Below, piece by piece: positions 13,774 to 55,040 of a stretch of DNA of 64,000 bases (its first letter is position 1; the number at the start of each line of letters is the position of its first letter). The stretch covers positions 248,001 to 312,000 of the forward strand of contig QPGO01000063.1 in the NCBI GenBank assembly GCA_008632985.1, in the 5' to 3' direction. The notes under the pieces were generated by a model. The model was not told the origin of the DNA. It made no database searches and worked only from the letters and a program-made list of their open reading frames with translations. Both the position numbers and the translations under genes were made by a program. Source of the DNA: Psammoneis japonica. Its lineage: Eukaryota.

Positions 13774-14782
13774 CAACATGCTGAGGCAATGGATGCAATG
13801 TCTCTTCCAAGCATGAATTCAAATGAAGGTCATGCCCACACCAGCCACACCATTCAATCAAACATTCAAGCATGCCCACACCGGCAGCAGTGCAGATGGA
13901 GCTGACAAATGGAGCATTGATGGTTGAATGTGTGACATCTGCAAAAACAAAGAGCATGACTTTTGTGAGGAATTTGTGCAACACATCATGAAAAACTGCT
14001 GCTGGTTGTTTTGGCAAGAACCGTTGTTGTTGCACAAGCACAAACGGTGCACAGAAAATGCAGTGCAAAATGTCTTGCCGGTGCAACAGCACAGTGCGCT
14101 TGTAGACCAGTGTCAGGTGGGTTCCAGTTCTTTCTAAAACACAGTCAAGGGGGTCATCCCCACGTTTGTCCTGGAATCATTGCCGAGGCATTTAAATCAG
14201 ATTTTTTACAGTGTCAGTTCTTGAATGCAAAAATTGTCTGCACTGGCACCCAATCATGCATGAAGACGAGAACATCAAGCACCGTGATCAAGGCACTGCG
14301 ATGGCAGAAATCTAACATTTCTCCAAAATGCAGTGGTCCGTCCACAAACATTTGGTGTGTCAGTGACTTTGACACACAACAAACACAAAATGGATGAGAG
14401 TTGGCAGATGGACATCCACAGACTTGTGGCTTGATGTTTTCACCATGGTGAAGCATGGTGGAATTCATGACAAATCATTCAAAACACAAGCTGTTCAGCC
14501 AAATTTGAGCTAAAAAAGCTGCAAATGACCCCCCCAAGAGTTTTTGCATGTTGTGTCACCCACAAATTCCTCACAAAAGTCCGTGCTTTTCAAGTGCAAC
14601 ATTTGGATGTTTTTGCAGATGTTGCACATTCAACTGTCTCGACACTCCATTTGTCAACATCTTTCAACACTGCTGTCATGCTCAAATGTTTGATTCATTG
14701 GCATGGCAGGCGTGGGCATGACCTTAATTTGAGTTCACATTCATGCATGGAGAGACATTCCAAATGTTGCCTCAGCATGTTG
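13774..14782. repeat. Degenerate inverted repeat pair (13774-13997 and 14539-14782)
   Basis: CAACATGCTGAGGCAA...AAGGTCATGCCCAC...TGACAAATGGAG...GACTTTTGTGAGGAATTTGTG is present on opposite strands. Confidence 0.8.
14149..14534. mobile_element. Kolobok-like MITE family 1, heavily mutated copy
   Basis: GGGGGTCAT...ATGACCCCC termini, flanks TCAA/CCAA (degenerate TTAA). Homologous to 21820-22094 and 22218-22610. Confidence 0.8.
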
Positions 14783-14789
14783 CAACTTG

Positions 14790-21370: not shown

Positions 21371-21819
21371 GGTTATAAACAACACCTATGACAATCAAAA
21401 CTCGTTGCCAAGCACTTTATGAGAGGAATATTGCTGGGGGTCAAGACAGAGAGTCAAAAGAGCAATGCAGCGTGATGAGGGCCTATCCATACCCGGTAAG
21501 GCCTATTCTTGCGTCGGTTGAGGAGTCTTGAGTCGTCATTGTCGCATGTCTCAACCGACCCACGACCCAACGGATCAATTTTTTGTGGCAGGACCTACGC
21601 CAGAGAGCCAGTCGTGTAATTACAAATACTTGTAGAAGTAATAAATCTTGAATGTATAAATAAAAATGCTATTATCGTTTACATATTATGTCTGGGCGCC
21701 CCGAAAAACCCGGGATTCAGTCCCGGGTTTTCCACTACAGTACCGGTAGCCGTTAGCCGTTGAACGGAAAGATCCAATAACCATTGATCATTACTCAGAG
21801 GTTTTAGTCGGGATGTTAA

Positions 21820-22094
21820 GGGGGGTCATCCCCGCGTTTATCCTAAAATTACCGTTGCATTTGAATAAGGTTTTTTATAGTGTTTATTTTTGAATACAAG
21901 AATTATTCATAGTCACACCCGATCGCGCACGAAAACGAGAACCATCACCACCGCGACCGAAGCACGACGATGATGACAATCATCGATATTTCTCAAAAAC
22001 GTAGTTTGCCGTCTACCAACTTTTCATGTATATACAATCTTTGATACATAACAAACATAAAATAAATGAGAGTTGGTAGACGGACCACCTCCGT
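21820..22094. mobile_element. Kolobok-like MITE family 1, unmutated copy running into the N gap
   Basis: TTAA|GGGGGGTCATCCC left end; TA- and CG-rich. Confidence 0.8.
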
Positions 22095-22217: not shown

Positions 22218-22610
22218 GGCGGGTCATCCCCCACTTTTTTTAGCTCGAATTTGGCCGAATAGCTCGTGATTTGCATGATTTTTCTTGAATTTCACCGTGC
22301 TTCACCGTGGTGAAAACATCAAGCCATAAGTCTGTGACGGAGGTGGGCCGTGCGTCAACTTTCATTTATTTTATGCTTGTTGTGTATCCAAGGTCACACA
22401 CACATCAAATGTTTGCACACGGACCACTGCGTTTTGACTTGTGTCGATGTCACCGTCATCGTCGTGCTTCGATCACGGTGCCTGATGTTCTCGTTTTCGT
22501 GTGCGATCGGGGGTGAGTGCAAATGATTTTTGCATTCAAAAATGAACACTGTGAATGTCCTCATTCAAATGCCACGATAATTTCTAGGACAAACATGGGG
22601 ATGACCCGCC
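22218..22610. mobile_element. Kolobok-like MITE family 1, complete 393 bp copy, inverted relative to the other two
   Basis: TTAA|GGCGGGTCATCCCCA...TGGGGATGACCCGCC|TCAA. A TTAA target with GG..CC ends fits Kolobok rather than piggyBac. Confidence 0.85.
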
Positions 22611-25600
22611 TCAATGACTGTTCACCCTTCAAATGACACATCTGACGGTTGGAGTTACATTGGCATTTTGGGTTTTTTGCAGTGACGCATCACTGCAGAA
22701 ATGTCACCTGAGTCTACGTTGAAAAGCTGATGACTGCAAAAAAAAAAAAACCGCAGCCACCACCATTGTCGTCAAAGCAACATGCTCAGTGAATCGGAGC
22801 ATCAATGTCGTGATGAAGATGGCCGCCTCTGAAAGCACCAATGAAGCGTTTGGTGGAATGGCAGCACAACAACCAGGGCCACCGCTGCACATGACGGCCA
22901 CAGACTTTGGTCCCGCAACCATGGAGGACCAACTGGTGAACCCGAGCACATCCTTGAGGATGAGACAGAGACGGGAGATGGTGGTGACAGTGACGAAGAG
23001 CATGAGAATGTCAATGACATTGATGGAGCTCGTGCTGAAGCCCATTTGGAACGGTTGAGATCGCGTGTTGTGGACCAAGACAGTGACGAACAGACTGTGG
23101 CTGACAACGACCATGCTGCCTTGCCACTGCACCATGGTGAGCATGACCCGTCGGCACAGTTGAACGTTCCAGGCACTCCTGAAGGGTGGCAGCTGCCTGA
23201 AATAAAAGCAGACAAGGGGAGCCACCATTTGCTGATGTGGACAATCCCGGAGGGTGGAGCAGACATGCATTCCGCCCTGAGTTTGAGGCAAGAGGGGAGA
23301 AGGAGTGCATTCATCACAGCTTGCCAACTGGTGCCATGCCAGCACCTGAGAATTCGGAAGGGAAATGAATTTCCCATGGATGGTGGTTCTTTTGTCAGGG
23401 ATGGGATCGGCCCATGTCCAGCGATGATGTTGCTGATGATGACAAAGATCTGATGTTGTCACTGCCAAACAGATCGGGTGCATCAAAAGACAACCTGTTT
23501 CCAGGCATTGGGAAAGGATCATTGGACACAGGTGTGTTGTGATCGTTGGGAATGAAAGCTGAGCGGATGAAAAATCGGGATGCTTTGTTTTTCTGTCAAC
23601 TGATTCTGCCAATTGTGACACCACACGGTCGGGTGTCAACTCAGACCCCAGAAAGTCATTCTACAGCGAAGTGGAAACATGTTCAAACTTGCACACCGTG
23701 GGAGAGTTGAAGCCATGCTCTTCATGTGCACACCAGTTCAAACTTGTGAGCATCCAGGAGCTTGTCAGATTTGATGGAGTGATTGTCCGAGACGGCATCA
23801 AGGGTGGCAGTGACAGAGCCACACACCGCAGGTGGATGGCTGATGGATCCGACTGCAACTCAGATGTGTCCTTGTCAATTGGTCATTCATGTTGGCTTCA
23901 AATGAAGCAAGTGCTGAAGCCATGCAACAACATGACATCCCCCCAGAAGAGGAGAAGCTGGGTGCAACCCGGCCCACAAGTGCAACATGACATGCGCGAC
24001 AACAGTTCACAATGTCAATGCGACAACACACCATGCAGAATTGGATCAATGTGGTGACGAAACCACCTGGGGCCATGCAGGTTGTGGCGAAGCTGGCAGC
24101 AGGATTGCCGGTTGCACAGTTGGAAAGCCCGGCATCACCAAGGGAGGTCAGACAGTGATCATGTCGATGCACACCGGATCCGACCTCGGGCTCATGTTCA
24201 CCGACACAAATTGCACCCAAGGACAGATGGATGGGGTGCCATGGGCCCAACAGAAATCTGTGTGATCTTGGAACAAGCAGGCGAAATGGTGGATTTTGGC
24301 AGAATGGGTGACGACGCCGGACCCAAGAAGACATTCCAAGGAAAGCCACACATGACATGTGACAACTGCTTTGACACTGACTGCAGTTCAGACTGGATTG
24401 GAGAAAATGGCCATTTGGCTGCATTTACACGTCAAAGGGATCGGCTGCCTTTGGGTGTGCCAGGGAAGTGCTTTCAGAAAAAACAAACACCACCCAATGC
24501 AAGATGTCGAAAGCAGCAAGGTTCAATCATCCGATTGTTGCTGTCAAGACTGTGGCGCCCACACGCAGTGCTGAGGGATGCCAGCGTGTGCTTTGCTCAT
24601 TTCAATCAACCTCGTTGTGCAACATTGCTGCTGTGAATGCCCTCAACGAGTGTAACAAATGTGTGAGGCATCGGGAAACAGGCAGAAACGAGAGCAAGCG
24701 ACACTGGGCAATCGAGATGAATGAAGCCCATGATCTGTGTCTTTCAACTTGCTCACGAACTGATTCAATGGATCATTGCATCAAAAATGCAAAGATGTTC
24801 CATTGCTCTTGGAAGTGTTGGCATTCTGCCACGAACCACGGTGAGGCCATGGCCATCGTCATTGCACATGACATGCATTTGGAAGTGGCGAAGGGTGGGT
24901 TAGACTTGTCTTGGAAAGACGACAGTCCAGTGGGTCACTGGGAGTTCCGAGAACAACTCTCAAGACAGATGCTGCAGCATCACCCTGAAGCACGTTTGTG
25001 CCATGGTGACTCCGCAATGCGGGTTGCAACGCAACAAAACCATCAACAAAGAGTGGCTTTGGAACAAACGACAACGACTCGCAATTTTGTGACACCAGAA
25101 CAATGCCAACACGCTCAGCAGGGTGGAAATGAATCTCGTCTGTGTCACAGTGTGCTGCGCTTGTGTTGTCACTTCGATGCGGTGTCCACCAGCCACAAGC
25201 ATCCAAGGGTCTGTGTTTGGTGCGGGGCAGACTCGCACTCGAGTTGTGACCTGTGTGGGAAACCATTGCACTTCCCTGCCAACCAAGGCGCAAGCGGCAA
25301 GAAGACCTGTTTCCTTGACAGTCATGATGCACTGTTGTGTGGGCTTGGCAGGGAAGACACTCAGCTGTTTTCAAACAAATGCAAGACTGACTGGACACCA
25401 CCATCAATCACGGTGAAGAGACAGAATGCAAATCACATCAAAAGTCTCATTGAACAGCAGGACAGCAATGCCACATAAAATGTTAAATTCTTTGTTCAAC
25501 ATTGTAAGCAGCAGCAGCCATGCAGTGGATCAAGTGATCTATTTTCTGTAAGAACTGGGAAGCAAAGTCACATCGGGTTCTAAGAAATGGCAAAATTACG

Positions 25601-31157: not shown

Positions 31158-32168
31158 ATGACGATGAGCGTTCTGAAATTAGTGCCGTCCAGGCTGTTTT
31201 GCATTTGTGGGATAGTGCTACTGGCTTTTAGCCATGGTTTTTCTTGCAATGCTTGGGCCCCAAGTTCGAGCCTCAAGAAAACAGCGCGGTTGGCTCACGG
31301 TGCCACACGGTTGTACGTGAAGAAGGGAACTCCTTCATTTGTTTCAGAGAAAAACAGTAACGAATCTGAAGAAGAAAAGAACGTATCTCTGGCATCACAG
31401 GTGAAACCTGAGTCTCTAATGGCAAGCGCTTTAGTTCCTTTGGCGCTCTTGATGTTTCCAGAAAACGCACACGCCGCGGGGAGTCCGTCCGTGATTGGTT
31501 CTGCGTTTGTAGCCTATGGACATTATTTGAGTCTGCTGGTGACTGCCGCATGCATCACGACGGAACGATTCACTATCAAGCCAAACATGACTGGAGAGGA
31601 GGAAGATCGTATTGCGATTGCTGATACAGTTCTTGGGTGAGCATGGAATGATCTACTGTATGTTGACGCAACAACAACTTTCGTCATCTTTGACTAACAT
31701 TTCTTGCTCATAAACAATACATCTAGATTGGCAGGTGTCTTGTTGGCTTATACTGGATACTTGCGGGTCGTTGAGTATGGCAAGGGTTGGGAGTTTTACG
31801 CCCACGAGCCAATCTTCTGGCTCAAGATTGCCTTTGTTGGAGTATTTGGTGGCCTGTCGTTCTTCAACACTATAATTATCATTCAGCTATCGGTCGCAAA
31901 ACGGCAGGGTGAGACCTTGGAGCCAATGTCAGAAAAGTTGGCAGATCGAATGAACAGAATTTGCACGGCCGAGCTTTCTGCTCTGGCTAGCATTCCGTTG
32001 ACGGCGACACTCATGTCTCGTGGCGTCTTGTACAGTGACGAAATTCCTTGGCAGATTGGAGCAGGATTTGCGTTTCTCGTGTTTGGTGGTGCAAGCTACA
32101 AGTATGTTTCGGATGCTCTGAATTGGAAAGAAGACCTTGATGAAATTGAAACAAGTGCTGAATCCTAA
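31158..32168 (+). CDS. DUF2214-family membrane protein, probably plastid-targeted; 2 exons (31158-31636, 31727-32168)
   Basis: Signal/transit region, AYGHYLS, GYLRVVEYGKGWEFYAHEPIFWLK, IPLTATLMSRGV. Intron GTGAGC...GACTAAC...TAG (31637-31726). Confidence 0.85.
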
Positions 32169-32535
32169 TTGCTTTCTTGCACAAAGGTCGCAAGTAGTTG
32201 AAATCCTGCGAGCTAATACCGGTTCATGCTGCCTACTCACACTGTAGTTGCCATGCGCTTGTTTAGTGCACCATCGCAAGAAATAAAAACGTTTTTTTCT
32301 GCTTTAGAACAAGGGATAAAATGAGCAAGGTCGACTTTGGACTTCCGCAATAGCAACTCAAAAATTGGGTCCCGCGTTGCATTCGCGATCGAGTCACGAG
32401 CAACGGCGACGGCACCATGATCTCAACACCTGTTGCGCTGCCGTTCGAATTCGAAGCTTTCGCTCATGGTGACTCGTTTGTATCTCTTTATTGTGTCCCT
32501 ATTTTTAACGCCTCTTTGGCATGAACCATCATGCT
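32001..32535 (+). repeat. Direct repeat copy 1 (pairs with 44639-45205); includes a truncated 5' stub of the 45136 gene at ~32466-32535
   Basis: Colinear alignment over ~540 bp. Confidence 0.95.
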
Positions 32536-32739
32536 TGAATTTCGATCACTCACTAACTAGTACTCTTTTGTGACGTGCCAGTCCGTTCTTCCCCCGTCAA
32601 AGATCTGACAGGCGACGCGCGATTGTGCACGCGCATCGGCGACAAACACGAGAACACGAAACACGAGCGCATAACATCACGATGGCGGCGTCCACTCCTC
32701 TTTTTTTGACAAGCTAAGTCTGGATAGAGGACAAAGAAG

Positions 32740-37099: not shown

Positions 37100-39270
37100 A
37101 ATTTCTGTCGTAAACATTGACACTTGATTCATGTTGATGCACTTTTTCCTCTTTTCTCCTTTCAAACACTGCAATCATCTGAGTACCTTCTCCTGCATGG
37201 GAAAGAAAGTGCAGGAAGGGACGATTTCCTCACTAAACCCAGCTTTTTCGTTGGACCAACAGAACTGGAGAATGGCACTGCATTTCCACTCGAAGCAGTC
37301 AAGCTGCAAATCCACCTCATTTTCGAGCTTTATGAAAGACGCAGTGTTCAGTTGCTGCCTGTTCGCACCATTCATCAATCAGGAGAGTGTCACCAATGCA
37401 AAGGCGGGCACCGCCATGGCAAAATGCAGAGTTCCCAAAAGCCGACTACGGGGAACATGAGTTTGGCTTTGAACATTCCACCAACAAAATGTCTGTGACC
37501 CAGACCAAAACGGTGGCCAGATTCCATCCCAGCAGCATGTGGGCTGGCCGACAACCCCCATGTGTTCACAATGATCCAATCCAAGAAGAGGGTGCGATGT
37601 GTGGCTGTGATCATGCCCCTTTGTCATGACACAGCAAGTTCATGACATTTTCCAGTGCTTGCATGGGCTGGATTGCAATTTTCAGCCAGGCAGAAGGTGC
37701 CAGAATGAGGGAGCATGTTGCTGTGAGTGGTGTGATTTTTCACTTGCAGTTTGCTTGGAGAGGTTCTCAGAGGCTTGAGCCCTTCAGAGCAGCAGACCTT
37801 CTCAGCTTGTCCTGGCTGGGCCAAACAACTGAAACTTGTGATTGCAAAGATGAAGGGGAGATGAGCAATTTTCATCTTGGATCATCATGGAAAGAAGAAG
37901 AAAAATGCAAACAACACTCAGAAAGTGCCAAAGCACAGACACAGCTCCCAAGCCCCCAGGTGCAAGAACTCCCCAGAGGTCAATCAAGCTGAGGTTTTAA
38001 AAAAGACACCAAGACCAATTGAAGCAAACACAAACACTGCAATCATTGTTCAAAGTGTGGGCACAATCAAGAGAAGTGAATTTGTGCTCACCTTTTCCTT
38101 TGTCAGCACCAGCGATTGCTTCATTGTTTTTGTGTTTTTTGTGAGCAGCCAACCACAACAGCCACCCTCTCTGCAGCAGTGCACTTTGCAGCTCTTGTTC
38201 TGTTGCCAATGGGAAAATGCAAAGTCTTCAGCACCACCGCCCAACCATTGCTGACACAGAGAAGTTCAACACTCTTGAGCAACAGAGCAATTGCAGGAGG
38301 TTGCACTCCCATTTCCCACACAGTCTGTGAAACAACTCCTTCATCTCATGAACAATTTCAGCCTCACCTTGCATTGCACCCTCCCACAGTGCATGAGCAA
38401 AGTTGCCAAACTCTTGCACAGCTTGCACAATGTTGAAAAGCCAAGAAAAATTGCATTTTGAAATCCATTTGCTGGGCTTGACGAATGGGATTTGTGTTTC
38501 TTTTGCAGCAGCTCTGTTGGTCTGTGAAGCTGTGGAGGGTTTTGCATCATTTCTTGCCCCATGTAATGCAGCCAATTCTGATTTCTGCATTGGCATCTGG
38601 CTCTTCTTTGCCTTTGTAATTGCTGCCATTGTTGACCCCACTCTCTGCTGCACTCCTCTGCACTGGAATCTGCAATGGCGCTGCTGATAAATCTGGCTCC
38701 ATTCTCAGCTGTTTTTCACTTTTTGCCCACCTCATCACTGCTGAGATCATTTTCTCCTTCTTGTGTTTCTTGAAGCCTGTGAGTTGCCCTTGCTCTCTGC
38801 ATCTCCATGTCCCACTTGTGACACAGGCTGAGAAACAGTTTGACAAGCCAGTCTCAACATCATGAGTCATCGATGCTCTTGCTTGCATCAGAGCATGCAC
38901 TCTGCATCACTCACGACATTGTTGCAACCATTGCCACTGTTGCGGAGCACACCAAATCCACTGACCTGGGGCACCCCCAGCTGGTGACTTTGCCATTCCA
39001 TGCCAGTTGCTGGCTGTGCGTTCCTGCAGTTCCACCTGCCTGCCTGCCTGAAGCCTTTGCCCCCCCAAGATTGCAGCCAATCCTGGCCCTCTGCCACCTT
39101 CCATGTTCCAAGGGAAAGCCTTAAATGGAGCACCACAGGAAAAGAAAGGCCTTGTCTTTGTGGAATGAACAAATGGGGTGTGCCGAAAAACCCGCACTCC
39201 ACTCAATTTTGCCAATTGTCTCGTTTCCTGTGTGGCTGCAAGAACCGGTCAATTGACAACCGTTGCATTC
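37100..39270 (-). mobile_element. Degenerate DNA-transposon-like remnant (possibly EnSpm/Plavaka-type)
   Basis: KWISKCNF...VQEFGN...LWEGAMQGE...MKELF resembles the G..R..W...E..K segment of such transposases. TA/CG-depleted. Confidence 0.45.
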
Positions 39271-39502
39271 TGCTCTCTAACTGGAGAGCATGCTCTAGCT
39301 GGCTAACTGCCAGGCCCTGGCAGAGCAGCCTCTCCACTTAGCTACTCTCTCTAGCTGCTAGCTGCTCTCTCTAGCTCTAGCTGGTAGAGAGAGTAGAGCT
39401 CTGCTGGTGGTGGCTGGCAGAGGTGCTGCAGAGTCTATTTCCACTCGAAGTAGTCAACCTGAAATCCACCTCATTTCTCATTTCTTGTCTGAGCCTTGCG
39501 CC

Positions 39503-40278
39503 ATGGCGTTGCCTTTGCGGTGGATCCTTCTCGTGACACTGCAATTGTCACTAAGTTTTGTTGAACTGTCAAGTGGCTTCTCCATACCGCTTCCTCATCG
39601 AAAGCTCATTGCATGTAGCAGCGCCTTTGGAAACAACCTTGGCATGCACGATCACAAGACAACTCTGCATGGCAGCAGCAGCAGCAGCGACAGCAGCGTA
39701 GAGGAGAAGAAAACGTCAAGCAGCAGCAACCGGAAGCCCTTGTTTCCATTTCATGAAGCAAGGAAAATCGCCAGAGGACATGGGTTTGGGTCACGAGAAG
39801 AATTTATTGAATACTCTTGTCCAGGTAGGTAAGCTTTCTCAGCGTCACAACACACCGTTCTTGGTTGCTACTTTGCGATCATCTGCACGCATCACTGTGG
39901 AGAGTTCTTGTTTGTTGTAAGTTTCTCACTGGTGCTTTACTTGACAAATCATTTTGCACCTTATGGATGCCATGACTTCTCATGGTAGGAGCTTATCAAT
40001 TGCCCAAAAATGCGGACGAGGTGTGGGAAAAGGAATGGAGAGGCTGGGATGATTTTCTTGGTACACCTTTAACGTTCTCAGAGGCTCGAGCAGTTGCCCA
40101 AACGCTCTCTTTGGATACTCAAGAGGACTATATGACACTCATAAAGCAGAAGGATAACTTGGAAGCAATGAAGAACTACGATGAACGGGCGAGCCGTCTT
40201 CCGTTTCGTCCTGATCTAAAGTTCAAGCAAGAATGGATCTCGTGGGAGGATTGGTTGGGATGCGGGACAGAAATGTGA
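39503..40278 (+). CDS. Plastid-targeted protein with two 'phage-integrase repeat'-like units; 2 exons (39503-39824, 39989-40278)
   Basis: Signal peptide + SSG-F. Repeats F.EAR..A...(S/T).E(E/D)....LP...D.....EW..W.D(F/W)LG. GT-AG intron joins CPG-AYQLP. Confidence 0.75.
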
Positions 40279-40822
40279 AATTAAGCGTTATTGATTGCGT
40301 ACCATATCCTTTTTGGAGGCTTGCAGCCTTGTCGTGTTATCGATTGAGTCTTCGTGGCTAATCTCGTCGATACCGTAGTATTGTAAGGTGGCGTCAATCT
40401 GTCGCCAAAGCCTTGATCGCAACTAGCATTCACATACTCTAGAGGCCCTACAGTCGGGTACGCGGGGAAGGTTCATCCTTCTCTCCGACAAGCAAATTGG
40501 CGCCGGCACTACGATAAGTTTGAGACTCGGTATCCTTTGGTGCGACGACTCCCACAGTTGTGGAAAGGAGAAACCTCTATCGTCGTTGCGTCATATCTTT
40601 TCGCTGGCGGCAAATTTTTTTAGTGCATTTGATGGAGCGTCTAGCTACAACCGTTACACTCTAGTTTAGCATTTGACAGCGAGGATCTGCAAGCAATCTT
40701 GGTCATTATGTAACCTTTTCATCAGACAACAGTTGCAGCTTATCATCCATGCCACAATAGTGCAGCCCAGCAAGCGCCAAGAAAACGCGATCGCTCCGAC
40801 CACAACCACTCATGAGAAGTTG

Positions 40823-43800
40823 TCACTGGTCTGCTTTGTCCTTTTCTCCGTCCATTTCACTGGAGGAGCGGACAAGCTTCCTGCCGACCAAGCCGCGTGT
40901 AAAACTAGCACTCAAAGCAGGCAAATCGCTTGTCGCTAAAGCCGCAGATGACGGCCCGAGTTCAGTTGCAACCGTTCCAAATATGTTTGAGGCGTGCCCT
41001 CTGATAGTACTATCGTCATTGAGCGACAAGGACGTTGTCTTTGCACGTTTCTTTGCGTTGCTGACATTTATTACAGGCGCATCCGTTGACGACAACATGC
41101 TTCGTCGTTTCTTGGACACGCTACCAACAAGACCCTTCATATCACTGGCAGAGGATCCTCCCTCTAGCAAAAGGATTTCTCCTTTGCTCGTCAATACATA
41201 CAGCTTGATTAATGGTGCCGCCTTGTTCGAAATAGGTGCTTCTGTGGCAGTAGGAGACACTGGTATCCAGGCAGAGGACTGCTGCATCTTTAGTTTGTCA
41301 GCGTCGACACCGATTGCACGAACGTGTCCGTCAAGAAACCACGTCATGGCTTTTCTTCTTGCTGTGTCGTCCGGGGCATGCCTGTCACCGTATCTAAAAG
41401 GATGACTTGACTCTGTTTAGCATATCGGCGATAGACGGAAACTGCCACCAATCGTCTCGAGAAAGTACTTGAACATCGGACACACGGGCATATTGTTGCT
41501 GCTGATCAAAGATACCATGAGACCAACCATTGTCGGTGTTGCTTTGCTGGGGAAACACAGATTTCATTGAAACGCCGTTTCTTGACCTTGTCAGTAGCGC
41601 ATCCCGGATGAGGGGTGTATATACAAACTGGATCGACTCCACGGGGGCATCGTCGTCATCCAAATGTCTTAATGAGTGCAGCATTGTGGCGTTCTCGTGA
41701 TCCCACAACGTCACCATGTGTCCAAACGCTATCGCCAATAAAGACCCGTCCGAAGAAAAGGCAATGCCGTTGGGGCTTGTGCCAAAGTTAGAAAACCCAC
41801 TGGGAGTAGTAATCTTGTACTGACAGACCCATGTTGTTTTGTCATTGTCATTACTTGCATAGCCTTGTCCTTTATGCCATATCCGAAAGGCGTTTTCATC
41901 ATTACTCGCAGTTGCCACAAAAGAGCCACAGCTAGACATTGCCACGGATGTGACGGTGTTTCCTCGTCCATGGGGGTTGGTCATGGATGCCGATAATACA
42001 AAGGAGGACGCATCTCTAGCACTACTTTTCTCTGATGACTTTGTCCAAAATTTCAAGGTATGAACAACTCCCAAGAGGGTCCTTCTGTTTCTGTTGCCAA
42101 CAAGAACATAGGGCGCAGCACCCACCGAGTTTTCACTCCACACCGCATCGACCGTGACCAATTCATTTGAAGCAAAGGCGACATGTTCGACACGAGGCAT
42201 TGGCATATCTACATCAAAGTCTTCCGTCTTGGACACAAAGTTGTGTGGGACCACTTCGAGTTTGGAAACGACACGTTCTTGATCCACGTGGTACCAATGC
42301 AAACAACCGGGTGAACCGTCCATACCTCGAAGAATAATGACTCTGGACTGATTCGTGCTAACGCCATTGACGATTTCATAGGTTGAATCACGGTGCTTTT
42401 GGCTTGGCTGCTGCTGTTGCTGAATCGGCAAGCCTTGAATCTTCCATTGCTGTGCAAAGTTATGACTCGCCAGTGCTACCAGAGAATTGTCTTGACAGTA
42501 AACCAAGACTGTGCTTTCCATACTGGACACATGCAAGATGCTACCCTTTGCAATTCGTGGCAGCATATCGGTAGGCTTGGATGTAGAGCGCGACAATTGC
42601 CAATTCACCAAGACGGATTCCATACCTCCCGTGTACAAAATGTCAGAGTTGTTGTTATCATACGCCAGAGTCGTCACGGCGTGTGCATGCCAATGGAGCT
42701 TTCGCATAATGATGCGAGTCGTCGGATGAGGCGGTTGCTTATTCTTTGAATTTTCTTGCTTTCTCAAAAATCGAGCGCTTCGTAGTACTCCAAGACGGCG
42801 GCAAACACATCCACAAGGATGCGCACGTCACCCTCGCGGTGTCCACACGCCAAGTCGTTCTTGGATACAGCCAAGGCGGTCAAGGGACTGTTGGCTGGCA
42901 TGGTGAACGTAATGCTTGGTAAAGTCGAGTTTGCTCCTTCTGCGGTTGAGCTGAATAGTTCGTGGTGAATCGAAATGGATGCTGGACGACCAATAATCAC
43001 AAAGACGTCTTGGTGCATGTTCTTGGATTGGCAAGGACGACACGTTGACAAGAGAGTAAAGGGAAAAGCATTGACCCCCCTTTTCACCCGGCCCTTGATC
43101 TTTTCCACCTTGGTCACTTGAGCGAGAACGACATTTGTGTCGTCCTTTTTGTTGTAGGGTGGAATGACAAGACGCATCAGTGCCATGGAGTGTGATTTCG
43201 TCTTTGACTTTGTTTCCTTTAATTCTTGCTCTTTGTGCTTGGTGGTAGTCGCATCCTGACCCATCAAAACAAACACCAAGGATCCCTCGTCATTGATTGG
43301 TTGCAGCGGAGGTACCGTCACGTGCAGCAGTGGCGCTGGATTGTCGTTCTTGTCACACCTAAACACTCGTCGGGGTTCATGGCACGGTCCTTTGAGATAG
43401 TACGGGCCAACACTTCTGGATTCATTGCTGCTACCAGCTTTAGTCCTTACAAGATTATTCAGCGGAAATTCTTGAAGTGTTCCATTGGTACAGGCAACAA
43501 GTACAACGTATTCAAAGAGCTCGTCTTCAATGGCGGGATATGATACGGATTCTTCTTCGTCGTCGTCACTACTGCTATCGTGTTGATCTTTTTCTAACGG
43601 TGGAGACTTGATTTTACCAATACGAGCCACTGCAACGCCATGGATACCGACCCCCAGTTTGTCGAGAATCAAATTGGCGACAAATTGCCCCGTTTCACCA
43701 GCAAGTACTCGAACATGACTGGATTGAGGCAGCAACACGAAACGTTCTTTTTTGTCGTTTACTCGTGGAGTCAGGATTGGTTCCAAGACACTCCATGATG

Positions 43801-43900
43801 GCACTGTACTGTATTTCTTAGGGATTACTGACGCGTTGTTTCCCAGTAGTGCACCCCCGACACGCTTTGCCGTTGTTGCTGGTGATGTTGGTTCTGTCAT
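40823..43900 (-). CDS. WDR75: WDR75/UTP17 (Nan1) SSU processome WD40 protein, with three apparent 1-nt frameshifts
   Basis: KLHWHAHAV..L.Y, LYTGGMESVLVNWQL, LPRI, TLKFW, AFSSDGSLLAIAFGHMVTLWD, C-terminal LPALSASF. Confidence 0.8.
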
Positions 43901-44638
43901 GGCTTTAAGCAGAAAAATGAAGTGAGCTTGGAGAGGGGAGCTGAAGGGGGCAGTGGAACAGGTTATGTGGTTGGAAGTATCGCTGGAGGAACAGGTTATG
44001 TGGTGAAAAATCAATCCTTCCGATTGCGAGCTCGTCGACTTCCGAAAATATCACCAGAAAAAAGAAAAACTGGAAATGCATTCCTAACAACCATAAACGA
44101 ATATAAATTTCGCGGGCTCGAAAAATCGTCAGAAAAAAGAAAAACTGCTGTTGCTCCTGCCTTTGGGATGCCTGAATGCGTCTTCCAATTTTATGAAGAA
44201 ATGAGCAGGTGGTGGCACAAGAGTGCTGAAAACCTTCCCAAGGGTTGCTGGGTTGAAAGTTTGCTGCTGACTGACACGCGAGAGCATTGCGAACTGGCGC
44301 CGCTGGAGGAAGCGAGCCGGGAGCTGTCAATTGGTTGTTTGCTTCTTTTGCAAGAGAGCAGATGGCAGAAAGCAAATGGATTTTGTGAAATGTCTCATTG
44401 GGGTCAATGTGCTGAGGATCAAAACTCTGGAGAGTGTGGTTGGCGCGGCTCAGAAGCTGTCGAAAACCAAGCTCTTGGCTTGGGAGCTCATCGCATGATT
44501 GCCTGTGCCACCTTGATGGGAGTGATTGTTGATGTCCAGCATCATGATTCAGCTTTTTTCTGCAAAGGCATGGAGACTTGGAAATGGTTGCAGAAGGAGT
44601 GTGGTCTTGGTGCGCTGCGACTGGCGCTTTCTCTGCTC

Positions 44639-44803
44639 ATGGCAACGCTCATGTCTCATGGCGTCTTGTGCAATGACGAGATTCCTTGGCAGATTGGAGC
44701 AGGATTTGCATTTCCTCTCTTTGGCAGTGTAAGCTGCAGGTGTGTTTTGGATGCTCTGAATTGGAAAGAAGACCTTGATGAAATCGAGACAAGTGGGCTG
44801 TGA
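44639..44803 (+). pseudogene. Dead 3' fragment of the DUF2214 gene (start of direct repeat copy 2, 44639-45205)
   Basis: ATLMSHGVLCNDEIPWQIGAGFAF..FGSVSCRCVLDALNWKEDLDEIETS versus intact ATLMSRGVLYSDEIPWQIGAGFAF..FGGASYKYVSDALNWKEDLDEIETS. Confidence 0.95.
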
Positions 44804-45135
44804 GTCCCAGCTCTCCCTGCGTTCTTGCACAAAGGTCACAGGCAGCTGAAAGCCTGCGAGCTAATGCAGGTTTATGCTGCCTACTCACACCACAGTTACC
44901 ATGCGCTTGTTTAGTGCATCATCGCAAGAAATAAAAAAGTTTTTTCTGCTTTAGAACAAGGGATAAAATGAGCGAGGTCGACTTCGGACTTTCGCAACAG
45001 CAACTGAAAAATTGGGTCCCGCTTTGCATTCGCGATCGAGTCACGAGCTCGGCGACCGGCGACGGCACACTGCACCATAATCTGAATACCTCTTGCGCTG
45101 CTGTTCGAATTCGAAGCTTTCGCTCATGCTTAACA

Positions 45136-45957
45136 ATGATGACTCGATTGCGTCTCTTTATTGTGTCCCTATTTTTCATGCCTCTATGGCATGCACCATC
45201 ATGCTGTACTGCGTTTGGCTCGTTCTCGTTGTTGCCACGGGAAAATAGAATGACAAAAACAAACGGTGGTGTCTTTTCAAAGCGCAAGGATGATAATGAT
45301 GACGACGAACATCTATTCATGAACTTGTTTCAACAACAAAATCATCTTGATGACAAGAACGAAAAGAGGAATTACCAGCAACTCTCATTTTTCATGGAAA
45401 AGGCAAAATCACAAGAACAACCACCAAGTCTCGCAGCGACGGATTCTGACGATTCGTCACCCGAAGCCGTGATTCACAGAGTACTGACTGCGTTCTCCCA
45501 GAGTGAAAATGAAAAGGACATTTCAAAGGCTACCAAACTAGCATTTCAAGTTTCTGCACGTGACGAGGCAAAGGAAGGCGAGAATCATCGCCGCAAGAGC
45601 TGGAGGTCACAACAGGCTTCAAAAAACCATCAGCGGGGTTTGAGCTATGAAGACTTCCATTCCGAATTGATCTCGACTTATGCTTTTCTATTTGGGTGTG
45701 ACGTGTATTCTTTTGCAGGTCGGCCTGTCTACAACGATGAAGGTCAATGTTGCTTTTGTGTCGTGGTCCAGCGGGTCCAGAGCAATCACAAGGTGTTTTA
45801 CGACAAGGGAGTTGGGACATTGAATGTGGTGCGGCCTTTTTCATTCTGCATGGAACAGTCAGAAAGTGACAAATGGATCATTCAAAGTGTTGACCAAATT
45901 TCATTTGGATTCTGGCAAGCTCAGTGTGTAACTGACAAGTATGACACAGACATTTGA
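45136..45957 (+). CDS. Hypothetical plastid-targeted protein, C-terminal DUF4864/NTF2-like region
   Basis: Signal peptide + CTA-F. SPEAVI...L.AF...AF...F..M.Q....WII.SV pattern. Confidence 0.7.
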   Translation: MMTRLRLFIVSLFFMPLWHAPSCCTAFGSFSLLPRENRMTKTNGGVFSKRKDDNDDDEHLFMNLFQQQNHLDDKNEKRNYQQLSFFMEKAKSQEQPPSLAATDSDDSSPEAVIHRVLTAFSQSENEKDISKATKLAFQVSARDEAKEGENHRRKSWRSQQASKNHQRGLSYEDFHSELISTYAFLFGCDVYSFAGRPVYNDEGQCCFCVVVQRVQSNHKVFYDKGVGTLNVVRPFSFCMEQSESDKWIIQSVDQISFGFWQAQCVTDKYDTDI

Positions 45958-46399
45958 AAGGATTTGTAGCTTGTAAAGGAGAATGGCAGGACTGCGTAGC
46001 CACAGTCGGATTCCTTTTGTTTTGTACGAATCGCTTCACTGGCTTTGAACTGGAGACATGGCTAAAACAGCGAAGCTTGGAGATGTCAGGATGAGAAGGG
46101 CTCAAGATTATTCCTTCAGTTTGAGTGGTCAAAATACCAAATGGCGGGCTGCATTCTCTCTAGCTGTCAATATAATATCTCTGTCCGTTTGGAAGTACCT
46201 CTCTCTACGATTATATCAAATGATACGCACGGAACCAAAACCAGCTAGTTGAATGCTGCTCATGCTTTGCAATATCTTGCGTATGAGCTTTTGCGAACTC
46301 CTCGCACTGAAAATATCGATTCCTTTCCTACTGTCTCTATCTCTACCCTCTCTAGACTCATGGTGGAGAGTGTCTCTAGAGAGGCTGCACACTGGCACA

Positions 46400-49300
46400 A
46401 TAACAGTGGTCAACTATTTCTTCGTCCCTTTTTTTGGCGTCACATTTCTCAAAGCCATCTCAACCATAAGAAATGTGTGCGGTAGGATCTTCAGGTCTCT
46501 TTGGTGCTACCAACCAGGCTGGCACCGAACTTGAATACTTTTATCAAGCTGAGACTCAAGTGGATGAAGATACAGTGAGTGGATTCTGTCTGTGTTTGCA
46601 AGAAAACTCTCAACATTTCACTCCTGTCTGCTTGGGTTTCCTCCAAAAGCTGGAGGAAATGGGTCAACTGGGAGAAACCGACTTTGACCTTCATTTCGTT
46701 GCAACGGGTGTGGGCAAGGCATGGCACAAGCTTGGCCAACTCGGACAGGACACCTTGTCTCCAGCATCTGCCACCAGTTCTTTGACCACAGACAATTTTG
46801 TGAGCCTTTCCCCCAGTTCTTGCACTCTCATTGGGTCAGTGAAAAAAGCAGTGAAGAAGGAAATGAGCAAAAAGCACGTGGCAGCATTTGTGGCCAGCTC
46901 CACAGCAGTGCTTGCAATCTGAGCAACCAGCTCATGGTTAATGCCGACCATCGTCACAAAGAGCTTTTGGGAAAAGTCAATGAAACTGGCACAATGGCAT
47001 TGGAAAAAAATGATGAAGCTGGCATGAAGAGTTGGAAAAAGTTGATGGAACTGCTGGCGTGCACATGCTTTGCTGGTTTGCAGTCTCTGCAGCAGTCTGT
47101 GCAGCAGGAGGCAACAACTCTCTGCAGCACTTTGTTCAGCAGGGCAACAAGCCTTGCCAGGTGTCCATGTCAACCATGATGGCCTGTCTTGAGTTCACTG
47201 GCAAGAGGGTGGGAGTCGATGTTTGGGACAGCAAGTTGGACCGCATGATGGTGGACCAGCTGGCAGCTCCACCTCAAGGCACAGTGCTTGAAAAAGATGA
47301 GTGGCACAAGTCCAGAAGAGAGGGCTTCAAGGGCATTGCTTTTCTAGCAAATGCCAGCTGCCGCCCACTTCAAAGACAGCAAGAAGTGGGCCCACATGGA
47401 GGTGGTGGCCTGCACCGACTGGCCTGTGTTTGCTGGCTCCGAACTCAAAAAGAAGTGCATCTCTGAGCTCCAAGTTTGCAAAGCCAAAGGTGCGCATTGG
47501 GTTTGTGGGGCTTTGTTTGTGGGGCTTTATCCACAGGATTGACATGTTTGCATGGACACTGTGCCACGCCAGTGCCGGGGAAAGGACATCTCTGTGACTC
47601 TCGATGGCCAGTGCAAAAGAGGTGCCGCTGCTCATGCTGCCACTGCCGCTGCTGGTGCTGGCACCACTGGTGCCACTGACACTTTTGCACTGGCATTGTT
47701 GCTGCCATTGTAACCACAGGTGGCATTGCAGCTGCTGGCACTGCCGCTGCTGCAGTGTTGAGATGACAAGACAAGTCACGCAGTGTCGACAAAGTGGGCA
47801 GGAGCAAACCACCACCAGTTGCCACTTGTCATGAATGGCAAAAATGCCACACCTCCACCACATTGGCAGCCATGCCAAGTGCAACATTGCCATCATCGTT
47901 GTCACTCCGAGAGCAATGAGCTGGCCTGCTGTGCTCCAGTTTGGGGTTGATGTTGTGGCCACATTGTGGGCATGCCTTTTTGGCTTTGGGGCTTTCCTGT
48001 CGTCTTGGGCTCTTCCTTGATCTTTTTGGGATTTCTGGCTTTCACAGTTTTTGCTTGTGAGTGTTGAGCATGCCAGCAAAACAAGAAGCCACCCAATGGT
48101 CACACTTTTCCTTTCCACAAGGGGCTGCATGTGCCCCATTGGCGGTGGCACACAGCAACCATCTTTGTGACCTGTCTGGGCCTTTCTCAAAAATCACAGG
48201 GTTGGCTTTCCCGGTTTTGCAAATTTGAGAACCTTGTGCTCCCACATGGTTTTTGCAATTGCCAAGATTTGCGGGTTTCTTGTCACACTTGGCAATCTCC
48301 ACTTTTGGGTGGCTCTTGAGGTGCTCTGTCAAGTTTTCTTGGCAGTTTCCAACAAAAGATCAAGGCGCAGTTGGACAAGGAAGCATGCTGTTTGAACAGT
48401 TTGGGACGTGGCACAAACTTCTTTATGAGCTCGCACTTGGGCATGTTGGTCTTCTCTTTTCTGGGCTCCCACTCCTGCCAAAATCACCCCCATGATCACA
48501 GAGGGGACAAGTGCTCATCTTGTCAAGAATCACCACTCATCTCTTGCCAGACATGCCTCACTTCAAAGTGTTTGCTGGAGCCACAGCATGGAAGTTGTTG
48601 TGGTGAATGCAGCTGCGATGCTTGGCAATCGCTGGGTGATCAACATGGACAGTTGAAGCCAGCTGTGGGCCAAATGGAGCCAAGCAAGGCATTGTCATTG
48701 GGCCTGGGGCAGAGAAGTGGGCGGGTGGAAACTGGGTTTGCAGGCTCAAGATGAATGTCCCCATCTGGTGAGTTGGTGCCAAACACATTCACACACCAAA
48801 ATTTTTGCTGAAGTGAGCCCAGGTGCAGGCCCGCATTGATTTTGAGTTTTCATCCAACAATGAGAAGGTGGTGCGCACTCAGGAAATGGAAACAAACACC
48901 AGCTTTCCCAGGGTTCCCTTGGAAGACTTTGTTGTGACTCATGAGGAGCAACTTTCTGTTGATGATCCACCTGATCTTACTGCAGCTGCTGCATCTTGAA
49001 CGGGCTGTTGGCCGACATCAAAACAGCCATTGTGTGAAGGACAAAGAAGTGCACCAGCTGTCACTTGGTGTTTTCAGCCTGCTGCTGCTGCTGGAGAATC
49101 TCCCGGTGCTGTGGAAGAAAGAGGCAAGCCAGCGCTGGAGGAGTTTGCTGAAGCAGAGGATGTGATGACAATGGCTGTGGAGCCTGCTGCTGCTGGGGAT
49201 GAAGCAGAGTTGGGCAAGTCCACTGAGGTGGATGAGGTGCAGGGTGTGCCAGTGGATGAAACAGATGGGACAGCATTGGAGGAGCCTGCTGAAGCAGAGG

Positions 49301-52300
49301 ACATGACAGTGGTGGCTGTGGAGCCTGACACTGCTGCTGCTGCTAGGGATGAAGTGGAGCTGGACAATGAGTCTACCCCAAAGTGGATGAGATGCAGGAC
49401 TTGACAGTGGACAAAAGAGGTGAAACAGTGTTGGACAAGTTTGCCAAAGCAGAGGACACAATGACAATGGCTGTGGAGCATGCTGGAGAATTGCGTGTTG
49501 CCACAGAAGTTGCGATGCTGGCAGAAACTCATGGCAAGTCAAGAGGACACAAGGGACCAGGCCCAAATTTTCAAGGGGGCTGCCACTCAAGAAGGCTTCT
49601 TCATCAAATGGAGGTCCAACACTCCTTTTTAAAGTGGAAGCACTGGTGGTGCACTCGGCAACACAGTGCCACAACCTTTTGATGATTCTTTGCCCAGTGA
49701 TCCACAGGAAGAGCAAAACAAGCAGCAGAATGATGGGCAAACTGCTGGTGCTGGTTGTTTGCTGTTGAGTGCTTTGCCAACAAGCCAAGGTTCTGCCCAA
49801 GTGCTTTGAGTTCCCCACTGAGGGAAGAGCCGGGCTGTGGCTTTGAACACAGCAATGCTTTGTGTCACACAAAACCAGAGCACAAGCGCGGTGTCAAGTT
49901 GGGATGCGATGATGAGCGTGAGTGTGGTGTCGAGTTGGGGCACAACGGCGGGGTTGACAATGGTGACAGCTCTGCCAGTGAGCCTGGTGTCAAGTTGGGG
50001 TGCGATGATGGGGCTGAAGTGGGTGGTGGCTCCACCAGCAAGCCTGGCACATTGTTTTTGACCAGGTTTGTCTTTGTCTCACTTGCTCTGGGGGCACTTG
50101 TTCTTGCACCTGTGTCAAATTGGGGGTTTGACTTGACGAAGCTGAGTGACACATCAAAATTGCAAGATGGTTGGCTTCTCTGGATTGCCAGGCTGGCCAT
50201 CATGAAAAAACCATGATGGTTGTGTGAGCGGACCAATGGCAGGAGGCAATCATTCCAGGAAATGACAGTGGCTCAACTCAAGAGCTTTGGCGTTCAGGAG
50301 CTGACAAGTGGCAAGAGGAGGCAGTTGCTCCAGGGAAAAACAGCTGCTCAGCATCAGCGCCCCCAAGCTTGTCAACAGAGACACAGCAAACTCCAAGACA
50401 GGCAGCGCTGCAGCACATGCAACTTCGAAAAGTTCTTTGTCATGGATGCAGCTGCATCTTTTTTTGGGATTTGGCAAAACTTTTGACATTGTGTGGGCAG
50501 GCCACATGGGAGCAAATCTGTGAAATCAGCTTGTCAGAAGATTTTTGACATTGTGTGGGCACATCATTTGCCTGTTCGTTGGAGCCGTTTGTGCCTTCCT
50601 TGTTGGAGCTGTTTGCATTGCTTGTGTGCCACGAAACATGCTGAGGTGCTTGGCAAATGTGGAGGTGCCAAAGGAGATGTCAGATTGGACGTCAACTCCA
50701 AGGGCTGCGTCTGCACATGGGGCTGGACCCCAACAACAGGTTGCAGCCAGTGTTGTGCATCAGGGGTGTTGGTTGCAACAGAGCCATCGGCAGCCCCGTC
50801 TCTGGAGCTGAAGCATGCAACAAATGGCAAGTGTGGGAGTGCGGGGCGGGAAATGATGTGGACATCTCAAAGGGTGCCATTGACTTGCAGAGCACATTGT
50901 CAAAAAATGCACAAATCGGTCGCCGTGCAACCTGCACCTGAAGCACGCAACAACAAATGACAAGTGCAAGAGTGTGGGAAAAGAGTTTGAGTGTAGACAC
51001 CTCAAACACCTCAAAGTTTGGTGGACTGTCTCTTGTGAGGTGCATTGTCAAAAATTGTGCGGCTCGCATCTGAGCCGGACAACAGATTTGGCGGAGTTTC
51101 AGGCAGCTGTGCCCAACATCAGATCGGGCAGAGCTTCGGCAGCTGTGCCTGGCAACAGATTGGGCGGAGCTTCGGCGGCTGCGCGGCTTGCATCTGAGCC
51201 CGACAACAGACCGGGTGGAGCTTCAGCGGCTTTGGCAGTGGGGTGGGAGCCTCAGCGGCTTCGGGAGGCCACACTGGGGGCAAACCTGCAAAGTTGCTGT
51301 GATCAATTTTCCTGCCAGGGCAGCAGCAATCGTTGCGGCCCAGGCCCGGGCTGGGCTGTCGACCACAACAGCAAATGACAACGGGCCGGGTGGAGCTTCA
51401 GCGGCTTCGGCAGCAGGCAGAGCCTCACAGGCTTTGGGAGGCCACACCACTGGGGCAAATCTGCAAAATTGCTGTGGTCAATTTTCCCATCAGGGCAGCA
51501 GCAAATCGTCATGGCCTGGGCCTGACAACAGCAAACTCCAAGACAGACCGCGCTGCAGCACAACTTTGAAAAGTTTGCAGTGGATGCTGTTGCATTTTTT
51601 TGGGGGATTTGGCAGAACCTGTGTGGGCAGGCCACACCAGGGCAAATCTGTGAAATTGCTGTGGTCAATTTTCCCGCAGCAATCGCCATGGTTCAGGACA
51701 ACAACAAACTCCAAGACGGGCAGTGCTGCAACACAACTTCCAAAATTTTGTCGTGGGCACACACCGATGCATCTTTTTTTGGGATTTGGCAGAACTTTCC
51801 ACCAACATCCCTGTGACATGCAATGAAAACCAAAGGCTGCCGCCCAAGGGAACCCAGACTGTGCTTCAGCACAACTTCGAAAAGTTTGTTGTAGATGCTG
51901 TTGCGTTTTTTGGGGGGATTTGGCAGAACCTGTGTGAGCAGGCCACACCGGGGCAAATCTGTGAAATTGCTGTGGTCAATCGTCATGGTTCAGGACAACA
52001 ACAAACTCCAAGACAGGCAGTGCTGCAGCACAACTTCCAAAATTTTGTCGTGGACACATTGCTGCATCTTTTTTTGGGATTTAGCAGAACTTTCCCCAAC
52101 ATCCCTGTGACATGCAATGAAAACCAAAGGCCCCAACCCAAAACTCCAAGAACTTCAAAAAGACATCCTGACATGGGCATGAATGACCTCATCGTTGTTT
52201 TGCAATGAAAACCAATGGCCACAACTGGAAACCCCAAGAACTTCGAAAAGTTTGTGGTGGACACACGGTTGCATCTTTTTGGGATTTAGCAGAAATTTCC

Positions 52301-52930: not shown

Positions 52931-52936
52931 GATTAA

Positions 52937-54936: not shown

Positions 54937-55040
54937 GAAGATTCCATCAGCCCGTGACCCATTTAGTTGTTGTTTATGGTCCATCTTAGGTCCATAAGCT
55001 CATATTTTCAATAGTCTGTAGATAGTAATTCGCACTTGAG

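Follow-up and report, generated by a model that had tools for sequence, protein, structure and literature searches.

INTRODUCTION

In mutation-accumulation lines of Bigelowiella natans, Mettrop et al. (bioRxiv 10.64898/2026.01.13.699255) found hypermutation that is limited to particular regions and directed at TpA dinucleotides. Of the 231 mutations that they report for two regions of integrated virus DNA, 230 were A>G or T>C changes, each of them at a TpA. The mutation rate was ~1000-fold the baseline, in some lines only, and the larger region was single-copy. The targets described there are integrated giant-virus and virophage DNA, with a Rho TpA of 0.45 in the nucleocytoplasmic large DNA virus region. 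The B. natans genome contains 124 clusters that are poor in TpA and rich in CpA and TpG, and the depleted genes are enriched in transposase and reverse-transcriptase domains. The authors propose an ADAT2-like adenine deaminase, and the Discussion of the preprint cites ADAT2/TadA, ADAR and AID/APOBEC as mutators. Our full-text literature search for TpA-directed hypermutation returned this preprint only, and nothing for diatoms. In the present study, we analysed a window of 64,000 nucleotides from the nuclear genome of the diatom Psammoneis japonica (assembly GCA_008632985.1, contig QPGO01000063.1, positions 248,001 to 312,000 of the forward strand; all positions below are those of the window). 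In this window, the end of a host gene coding for a DUF2214 membrane protein occurs twice, once intact and once as a dead fragment whose TA and CG dinucleotides have been changed to TG and CA in its first part and are largely kept beyond it.

In repeat-induced point mutation (RIP) of ascomycete fungi, C is changed to T mainly at CpA, which raises TpA; both copies of a repeat are mutated, and the process can leak into the flanks of repeats. Diatom transposons are known to be methylated. An original prediction for this locus, made from the letters of the window, held that the dead fragment was hit by a single signature affecting both TA and CG, which stops at the promoter of the neighbouring gene, follows the local chromatin state and does not behave like RIP.

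RESULTS

The dead gene end belongs to a DNA-level duplicate of host DNA

The source gene runs from ATG 31158 to a stop codon at 32168, and both of its exons match PF09980 (E 1e-27 and 1.8e-9, Pfam). Its intron is jumped, at 31636-31726 and with GT..AG ends, by a contig of the sequencing run X2. This run is listed as 'DNA?'; however, of the 12 joints given for it, 10 jump 69-164 bp between GT..AG ends, and for this reason we treat X2 as cDNA-like. The best public orthologues of the DUF2214 protein are 52-70% identical to it; every named one comes from a diatom, and a bolidophyte sequence is more distant. When the region 43001-46500 was compared with the window by self-BLAST, a single repeat was found, 44641-45205 against 32003-32535, with 83.4% identity over 566 columns (E 1.5e-173), and this was also the sole such pair in the self-BLAST of the whole 64 kb.

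31158..32168, + strand: intact DUF2214 membrane-protein gene, exons 31158-31636 and 31727-32168 separated by a 90-bp GT..AG intron
32003..32535, + strand: copy 1 of the duplicated segment, with 166 bp from the end of the DUF2214 coding sequence, followed by the 3' untranslated region (3'UTR) and intergenic DNA 5' of a WD40 gene (ATG 32740)
44641..45205, + strand: copy 2 of the duplicated segment, made up of the dead end of DUF2214, its former 3'UTR, promoter-like DNA and 23 codons from the start of the following gene, here called gene X

The duplicated segment thus holds a coding end of 166 bp, a 3'UTR, ~300 bp of intergenic DNA and a short frame led by an ATG. In copy 2, it opens a frame of 273 codons (ATG 45136), while at copy 1 (ATG 32466) it ends after 35 codons and stands ~205 bp before the ATG of the WD40 gene at 32740. 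The homology of the copies continues for ~370 bp beyond the DUF2214 stop, into the first codons of the next gene, and no poly(A) is present. Because the homology spans intergenic DNA and the start of the next gene, copy 2 is a segmental duplicate of host DNA made at the DNA level, without the features of a retro-copy. The claim that the process hits DNA other than transposable elements holds in this respect, the fragment being host-derived. The left end of the homology lies possibly at ~44632, with none further 5': tblastx and sensitive blastn of the dead copy 5' of ~44632 gave nothing significant, and an alignment of this 5' extension collapsed to purines and pyrimidines scored 64, below the shuffle mean of 79. 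Copy 1 has a normal composition (TA observed/expected ratio, o/e, of 0.32 and CG o/e of 0.85 in 32003-32213).

The two copies form direct repeats around 32536-44640 (12.1 kb), an interval that contains the WD40 gene, one block of TA-depleted DNA (a TA desert, described below) and a WDR75-like gene; the DUF2214 end is intact in copy 1, and the start of gene X is retained in copy 2. The pair could be what is left of an old DUF2214-gene X adjacency, parted when a large insertion duplicated a target of 565 bp. Alternatively, a promoter may have been duplicated, or a piece of 565 bp may have been copied to another place. Among 80 DUF2214-encoding metagenome loci, most of the long ones being GC-rich non-diatom contigs, a synteny search detected no relatives of gene X or of the WDR75-like, WD40 or PhyH genes.

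TA and CG sites are changed in one part of one copy

All three Tyr codons of the dead DUF2214 end are Cys codons in copy 2 (TAC>TGC at 32032 and 32098, TAT>TGT at 32104, in the coordinates of copy 1). The corresponding residues in 18 orthologues are Tyr in 16, Ser in 1 and His in 1 at the first position, Phe in 11, Tyr in 6 and Ala in 1 at the second, and Tyr in all 18 at the third; Cys occurs in 0 of the 18. Conserved orthologue residues show that three other replacements in copy 2 are derived as well, namely R>H (CGT>CAT), T>M (ACG>ATG) and S>L (TCG>TTG), and the old 3'UTR of copy 2 carries GTAG>GCAG (32195) and ATAC>ATGC (32218). The Tyr-to-Cys changes, the several CG>TG/CA changes and both 3'UTR changes had been announced by the original prediction, and the translations and the alignment of the pair bear them out. 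As judged from these alignments, the direction of change, from TA/CG to TG/CA, is fixed by the functional paralogue together with the orthologues; the prediction had relied on the paralogue for this, and the search for Cys in the 18 orthologues, which found none, agrees with it.

Along the duplicate, the fate of these sites divides copy 2 into three zones.

44641..44861, + strand: zone A, the mutated part of copy 2 (~220 bp), which is the right third of a TA-free island
44862..44899, + strand: zone B, a transition zone with mixed fates
44900..45205, + strand: zone C, the spared part of copy 2, where changes are symmetric between the copies

Zone A has 14 sites that are TA or CG in copy 1; nine of them read TG or CA in copy 2, three are kept and two are changed otherwise, and the count in the reverse direction is 3/7. 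None of the five copy 1 TAs is left in copy 2, four of them having been lost via a single transition, and five of the nine CGs have become TG or CA. In zone C, by contrast, the forward change affects 3 of 30 sites and 23 of the 30 are kept (TA 6/9, CG 17/21), with 4/29 in reverse, and the difference in site fate between zones A and C is significant (p = 4e-4, Fisher test). TA/CG survival therefore shifts from 3/14 to 23/30 across ~40 bp inside a single duplicate. In zone B, between them, the forward count is 2/5 and the reverse 2/4; two of its four TAs are kept, in CTAA and CTAC contexts, and two are lost, in ATAC and GTAG contexts. The divergence of the copies follows the same division, with 16.1% in zone A (27 transitions, 7 transversions) and 7.8% in zone C (12 and 10, respectively). 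Since the border lies inside one continuous duplicated segment, an insertion junction cannot account for it.

Copy 1 retains CpGs at third codon positions where a silent change is possible (32005, 32071 and 32110) and TAs in its UTR (32195, 32217 and 32245), which indicates that it was not exposed to the process; the process is therefore unlike RIP, which mutates both copies. The predicted integrity of copy 1 is thereby upheld, and a second repeat case, given below, agrees. Mutation here depends on position, the same sequence being mutated at one place and spared at another. The statement that the duplicated DNA keeps its CG and most of its TA from ~44900 onwards is correct for the retention itself; the border, however, is the mixed zone 44862-44899 and not a point at 44900. 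Similarly, the signature does end at a stretch that is promoter-like, as the prediction had it, but promoter-like DNA is present at both loci, and purifying selection could explain this stop equally well.

The mutated part extends into a TA-free island between two genes

The TA loss of zone A continues to the left into DNA outside the duplicate, and zone A forms part of an almost TA-free island between two divergent genes.

44193..44861, no strand: TA-free island in the divergent intergenic region, with 1 TA in 669 bp
41397..43900, - strand: WDR75-like WD-repeat gene (PF23769 and PF23869; X2 contig 41352-43896; ATG 43900), which bounds the island on the left
45136..45957, + strand: gene X, open from ATG 45136, with a signal-peptide-like N-terminus

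At the normal TA rate of the window, ~27 TAs are expected in the island instead of one (Poisson P ~4e-11), which means that ~96% of the expected TAs are gone. The o/e ratios are 0.03 for TA, 0.48 for CG, 1.58 for TG and 1.43 for CA. The island occupies the middle of the intergenic region, being separated by 293 bp of normal DNA from the WDR75-like ATG at 43900 and by 275 bp from the ATG at 45136. TA loss is as complete in the part formed by the duplicate as in the left part, without a gradient. For the left 439 bp (44193-44631), we found neither a second copy in the window nor a Pfam match to either of the long frames, and no homology to anything tested. A Pfam search of gene X returned no family; its segment 45187-45833 is covered by an X2 contig with 1 differing letter. 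Just outside the left border of the island, a short local duplication, CAGAAAAAAGAAAAACTG, is present at 44055-44075 and 44131-44150.

TA deserts cover almost half of the window

The island is the small member of a set of similar regions. Four large blocks, at about 3146-16178, 22715-30560, 37447-39122 and 46571-52287, amount together with the island to 29.7 kb, or 46% of the window. In these deserts the o/e ratio is 0.07 for TA, 0.29 for CG and 1.73 for CA/TG, as compared with 0.58, 0.97 and 1.20 elsewhere, whereas the other dinucleotides barely differ between the deserts and the rest, and G+C is ~50%. The borders are abrupt, and each of the 56 TA-free gaps that reach 200 bp or more falls within or at the edge of the desert blocks. 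Under one fixed definition, 107 of the 254 500-bp windows here count as desert, and 0 of 2228 in 80 unrelated metagenome loci. The normal parts of the window carry, besides the DUF2214 gene, further host genes coding for sulfotransferase, amine oxidase, PhyH, WD40 and WDR75-like proteins.

At the edges of the deserts, TA loss outruns CpG loss by roughly 100-400 bp. At 2982-3136 and 15811-16270, CpG density is normal for ~150-450 bp beyond the point where TAs vanish, and from this presence of normal CpG past the last TAs it follows that TA loss is farther-reaching or faster than CpG loss. The two losses seem to be two processes, of which CG loss lags and has the shorter reach; the prediction of one common signature is not supported on this point. 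Among the residual TAs of the deserts, CTAA, CTAG and TTAA are enriched, and ATAC, ATAT and GTAC are depleted, contexts that hint at a preference for RTAY. A search for strand-coordinated clusters of TG versus CA found over-dispersion in the deserts no greater than in normal DNA (chi2/df 1.2-2.4 versus 1.4-3.4).

Since TA-free DNA has no TAA or TAG stops, many long open frames occur in the deserts, in all six frames (e.g. 43886-44803, 24381-25475 and 7141-8151; 173 open reading frames (ORFs) of at least 75 codons), most of them without homologues. For the ORF at 7141-8151, 0 homologues were found among 5542 candidates. A Pfam search of the 173 desert ORFs (23 + 150) detected a transposon domain in 0 of 173 and gave just 4 sub-threshold chance matches. 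The ESM Atlas supplied a weak lead (0.78), with clusters partly annotated DDE_Tnp_1_7, which was later borne out by HMMER. Blocks of this kind, nearly without TAA/TAG stops and Tyr codons, give rise to false long ORFs, which automated gene prediction would be liable to over-call, and mask transposons in domain searches.

Some other features were observed near the desert borders. The 10-mer CTCTCTAGCT has 4 exact matches, at 2856, 39347, 39367 and 46156, and 9 matches with at most 1 mismatch, against a shuffle mean of 1.8 (9 is reached in 0/100 shuffles). The exact matches are all found in normal DNA, no further than ~400 bp from a desert border, and those at 2853-2900 and 39345-39400 stand within hairpin-like tracts of the form CTCTCTAG...CTAGAGAG; such tracts are perhaps a border element or a terminal element. 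The contigs of both X2 and X1, a DNA run, lack 88 bp at 46667-46756, with CT..CT ends, where the fourth desert begins on its left, probably owing to a deletion allele or a haplotype difference. The right end of this desert (49111-49485, 50383-52887) contains degenerate tandem and dispersed repeats with units of roughly 100-300 bp. It is followed at 52500-57000 by an AT-rich stretch (G+C 0.39-0.42) of normal TA content, which has repeats of its own (52933-53384 versus 54492-54945, 86%; 55290-55502 versus 55516-55725, 98.6%, tandem) that are duplicated yet without hypermutation.

The same changes occur in a transposase relic and in a small repeat family

Two other groups of sequences in the window can be compared with less altered relatives.

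24381..25475, + strand: piggyBac-like transposase relic, the longest desert ORF, inside a large TA desert
14141..14517, + strand: small repeat, desert copy, inside a desert
21816..22094, inverted relative to 22236-22621: small repeat, unmutated copy, in normal DNA
22236..22621, - strand: small repeat, border copy, partly mutated

In the representative library, 841 relatives of the transposase relic were found, of which the top one shares 45% identity with it (E 9e-69), and PF13843, the piggyBac-type DDE domain, is found on four of its relatives (P0160, P0141, P0275 and P0278). In an alignment with 14 relatives, the 11 columns with a conserved Tyr show Cys 5 times, His 5 times, Val once and Tyr never in the relic, which has otherwise kept 5/5 conserved W, 6/6 N and 11/13 L columns. 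The relic is truncated, and it is degraded also outside TA/CG sites. By its sequence it is an independent, outgroup-polarised case of the same signature, and a survey of Tyr replacement by Cys or His in pseudogenes, run on this one transposon pseudogene, agrees with the pair (10 of 11 conserved Tyr). Among 150 public relatives, seven (P0207, P0267, P0232, P0240, P0131, P0250 and P0263) are nearly free of Tyr, with Cys or His at the conserved Tyr positions, and hypermutated copies therefore occur in other public records.

The small repeat, of ~280-380 bp, is possibly a small DNA transposon or represents terminal repeats. Its unmutated and border copies are inverted and lie ~140 bp apart, with an N gap at 22095-22213 between them. 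Of 22 aligned TAs in the unmutated copy, the desert copy keeps 1 and has TG or CA at 16, with 1/3 in reverse. The border copy keeps 5 of the 22 and has lost 17, with TG or CA at 16, but keeps 14 of 18 CGs, and TA loss is therefore faster than CG loss. One of two neighbouring repeat copies, with an N gap between them, can thus be spared.

Reproduction of the deserts by contigs of the run X1

In the deserts, the window was compared with contigs of the run X1 (word depth ~35-90). These contigs reproduce the deserts, with 4-7 differing letters and 15-17 small gaps per 1.5-2 kb. X2 is without cover over 44340-45006 and over the large deserts, and we did not use this as evidence of silence.

DISCUSSION

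Proposed explanation and its alternatives

On balance, we think it probable that copy 2 straddles the border of a position-defined silent domain in which TpA hypermutation is joined by a slower CpG decay, and that this border cuts the duplicate ~275 bp before the next gene. After the duplication, the first ~220 bp of copy 2 would have come to lie inside a small mutational domain, 44193-44861. In such domains, one process would convert TpA to TpG/CpA rapidly and almost to saturation, that is, A:T>G:C on either strand, while a second and slower one would convert CpG to TpG/CpA, most simply by deamination of 5-methylcytosine in silenced DNA. The choice of the target would be positional, as the border crosses the duplicate and stays ~275-295 bp from both flanking start codons, and the paralogue outside is spared. 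An enzyme as the cause, silent chromatin or methylation as what defines the domain, and active promoter chromatin as what sets its border are steps that we infer from this arrangement; a domain of silent chromatin bounded by active promoters is the reading that we favour. A DNA transposon and untranscribed intergenic DNA are among the targets, and TG and CA products are balanced (5 Cys versus 5 His in the relic, and no local strand clustering beyond background), which together indicate action on duplex DNA, on both strands, and not on RNA. A broader idea, to which we would give somewhat less than an even chance, is that diatoms carry the same TpA-directed hypermutation defence as a rhizarian alga. 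Such a defence would be old and widespread in the stramenopiles, alveolates and Rhizaria (SAR), with targets set by position or epigenetic state and not by sequence, foreignness or copy number, and with sharp borders ~0.3 kb from active gene starts.

Several points weigh against this explanation. Its two central terms, the domain and the enzyme, are conclusions and not observations, and the evidence comes from a single 64-kb window. In zone A, forward changes exceed reverse ones by 9 to 3 (p = 0.07), with n=5 for TA sites alone, and the directionality of the pair taken alone is suggestive, short of conclusive. Both loci have promoter-like DNA in the spared part, and the border that we see could therefore be a product of selection. 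The true target may be the left part of the island, whose 439 bp matched nothing tested. CpG decay lies outside the B. natans signature. The library type of X1 is off record and possibly its sample is the same as that of the assembly, and therefore X1 is not fully independent support. Finally, at 8 of 10 sites the two mutated repeat copies have the same product, and at the other 2 their products differ. So much agreement suggests that the mutation was partly shared by descent or, less well, that the direction of change is the opposite one; the 2 discordant sites need a TA ancestor.

The border of the mutated part could also be accounted for without a chromatin rule. If a foreign or transposon target lay at 44193-44631, mutation may have leaked for a few hundred bp into the host fragment. 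The duplicate is indeed only the right third of the island, TA loss exceeds CpG loss by ~100-400 bp at other desert edges, and at least one large desert contains a transposase relic. On the other hand, 44193-44631 is not repeated within the window, matches no Pfam family in either of its long frames and shows no homology to anything tested, and TA loss is equally complete in the duplicate and left parts, with no gradient; we therefore regard such a leak as rather unlikely, while giving it serious weight. A smaller chance is left for the view that the whole intergenic region was mutated and that purifying selection on the promoter and 5' end of gene X removed the altered alleles. In copy 1 and copy 2 alike, the spared part stands 5' of a gene, and its divergence is the lower one (7.8% versus 16.1%); gene X lies under a contig of the cDNA-like X2. 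However, with ~96% TA loss in the island, the retention of 6/9 TA and 17/21 CG would need nearly every site to be essential; the same stretch is equally unmutated in copy 1, and borders as abrupt as this one exist elsewhere in the window.

The remaining alternatives concern the reality or the origin of the changes themselves. Base-calling errors at modified TA/CG sites in a long-read assembly are very unlikely: the 15-17 small gaps per 1.5-2 kb relative to X1 in the deserts do suggest a long-read origin, but X1 contigs, at a word depth of ~35-90, show the same desert sequence except for 4-7 letters per 1.5-2 kb, the relic is truncated and degraded beyond TA/CG, and the same loss of Tyr occurs in 7/150 public relatives. 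Neutral decay of a pseudogene, with Tyr>Cys thrice by chance, profits from the small counts of the pair (9 forward versus 3 reverse, p = 0.07), and is nevertheless highly improbable in view of the TA gap of the island (P ~4e-11), the contrast between the zones (p = 4e-4), the transition:transversion counts of 27:7 in zone A versus 12:10 in zone C, and the identical signature in the transposase relic and the repeat family. We hold a duplication-triggered, RIP-like process that recognises the 565-bp repeat to be just as improbable. The pair is a direct repeat of more than 400 bp, and RIP is the classic repeat-directed mutator, but the chemistry is opposite, TA being destroyed here and made from CpA by RIP. 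Moreover, one copy is hit, and that in part, while the silent CpGs and UTR TAs of copy 1 are intact; the island reaches 439 bp into unduplicated DNA; and the larger hypermutated region of B. natans was confirmed as single-copy (10.64898/2026.01.13.699255). Least credible of all is ADAR-like A-to-I editing of a transcript that was then copied back to DNA. The preference for TpA resembles the 5' U preference of ADAR, to which the Discussion of the same preprint refers; however, the duplicate lacks a poly(A) and crosses intergenic DNA to enter the next gene, the relic of a DNA transposon shows the same signature, and TG and CA products are locally balanced.

Comparison with known systems

The system inferred here shares with RIP the character of a defence-like, dinucleotide-specific transition mutator that ruins transposons and can damage adjacent or duplicated host DNA. 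It differs in that RIP makes TA from CpA and mutates both copies, whereas here TA is destroyed and one copy and half of the other are spared. The CpG component is like methylation-driven CpG decay, with CpG>TpG/CpA changes, a CG o/e of 0.29 in the deserts and 5/9 CGs altered in zone A; such decay, however, cannot explain the loss of TA, behind which it lags and compared with which it has a shorter reach. A processed pseudogene would be limited to the mRNA, intron-less and provided with poly(A), and copy 2 fails this description, since it extends through intergenic DNA without poly(A). As for the chemistry, adenine deaminases that convert A to I, read as G, with a preference for a 5' T/U would yield a TpA>TpG signature. 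We know of no proof of natural DNA adenine deamination of such kind.

If the explanation favoured above is true, TpA hypermutation would be widened to an ecologically dominant algal group and to about half of a 64-kb window, beside ordinary expressed genes. Compared with composition alone, the pair adds a direction proven by outgroups, the same sequence in a mutated and in a spared state, and a border within a single duplicated segment. The targeting rule, whether chromatin state, spread from a neighbour or selection, thereby becomes testable at one small locus.

The closest likeness is to B. natans (10.64898/2026.01.13.699255). The two systems have in common A:T>G:C changes at TpA giving TpG/CpA, confined blocks with normal neighbours, independence of repeats, and TpA-poor clusters rich in CpA and TpG. 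B. natans is a rhizarian alga (a chlorarachniophyte), whereas P. japonica is a diatom. The depletion described in B. natans is mild, while here almost all TA is gone (o/e 0.07), in blocks that make up ~46% of the window and take in a fragment of a host gene. A CpG component is not reported for B. natans, but in our window CpG>TpG/CpA accompanies the TA changes and is read as a second process. The mutation rate was measured directly in B. natans, whereas here the process is known from its end state alone. What is new in comparison with B. natans is the lineage, the near-saturating extent, the coupling with CpG decay and a host-gene fragment that lies across a domain border.

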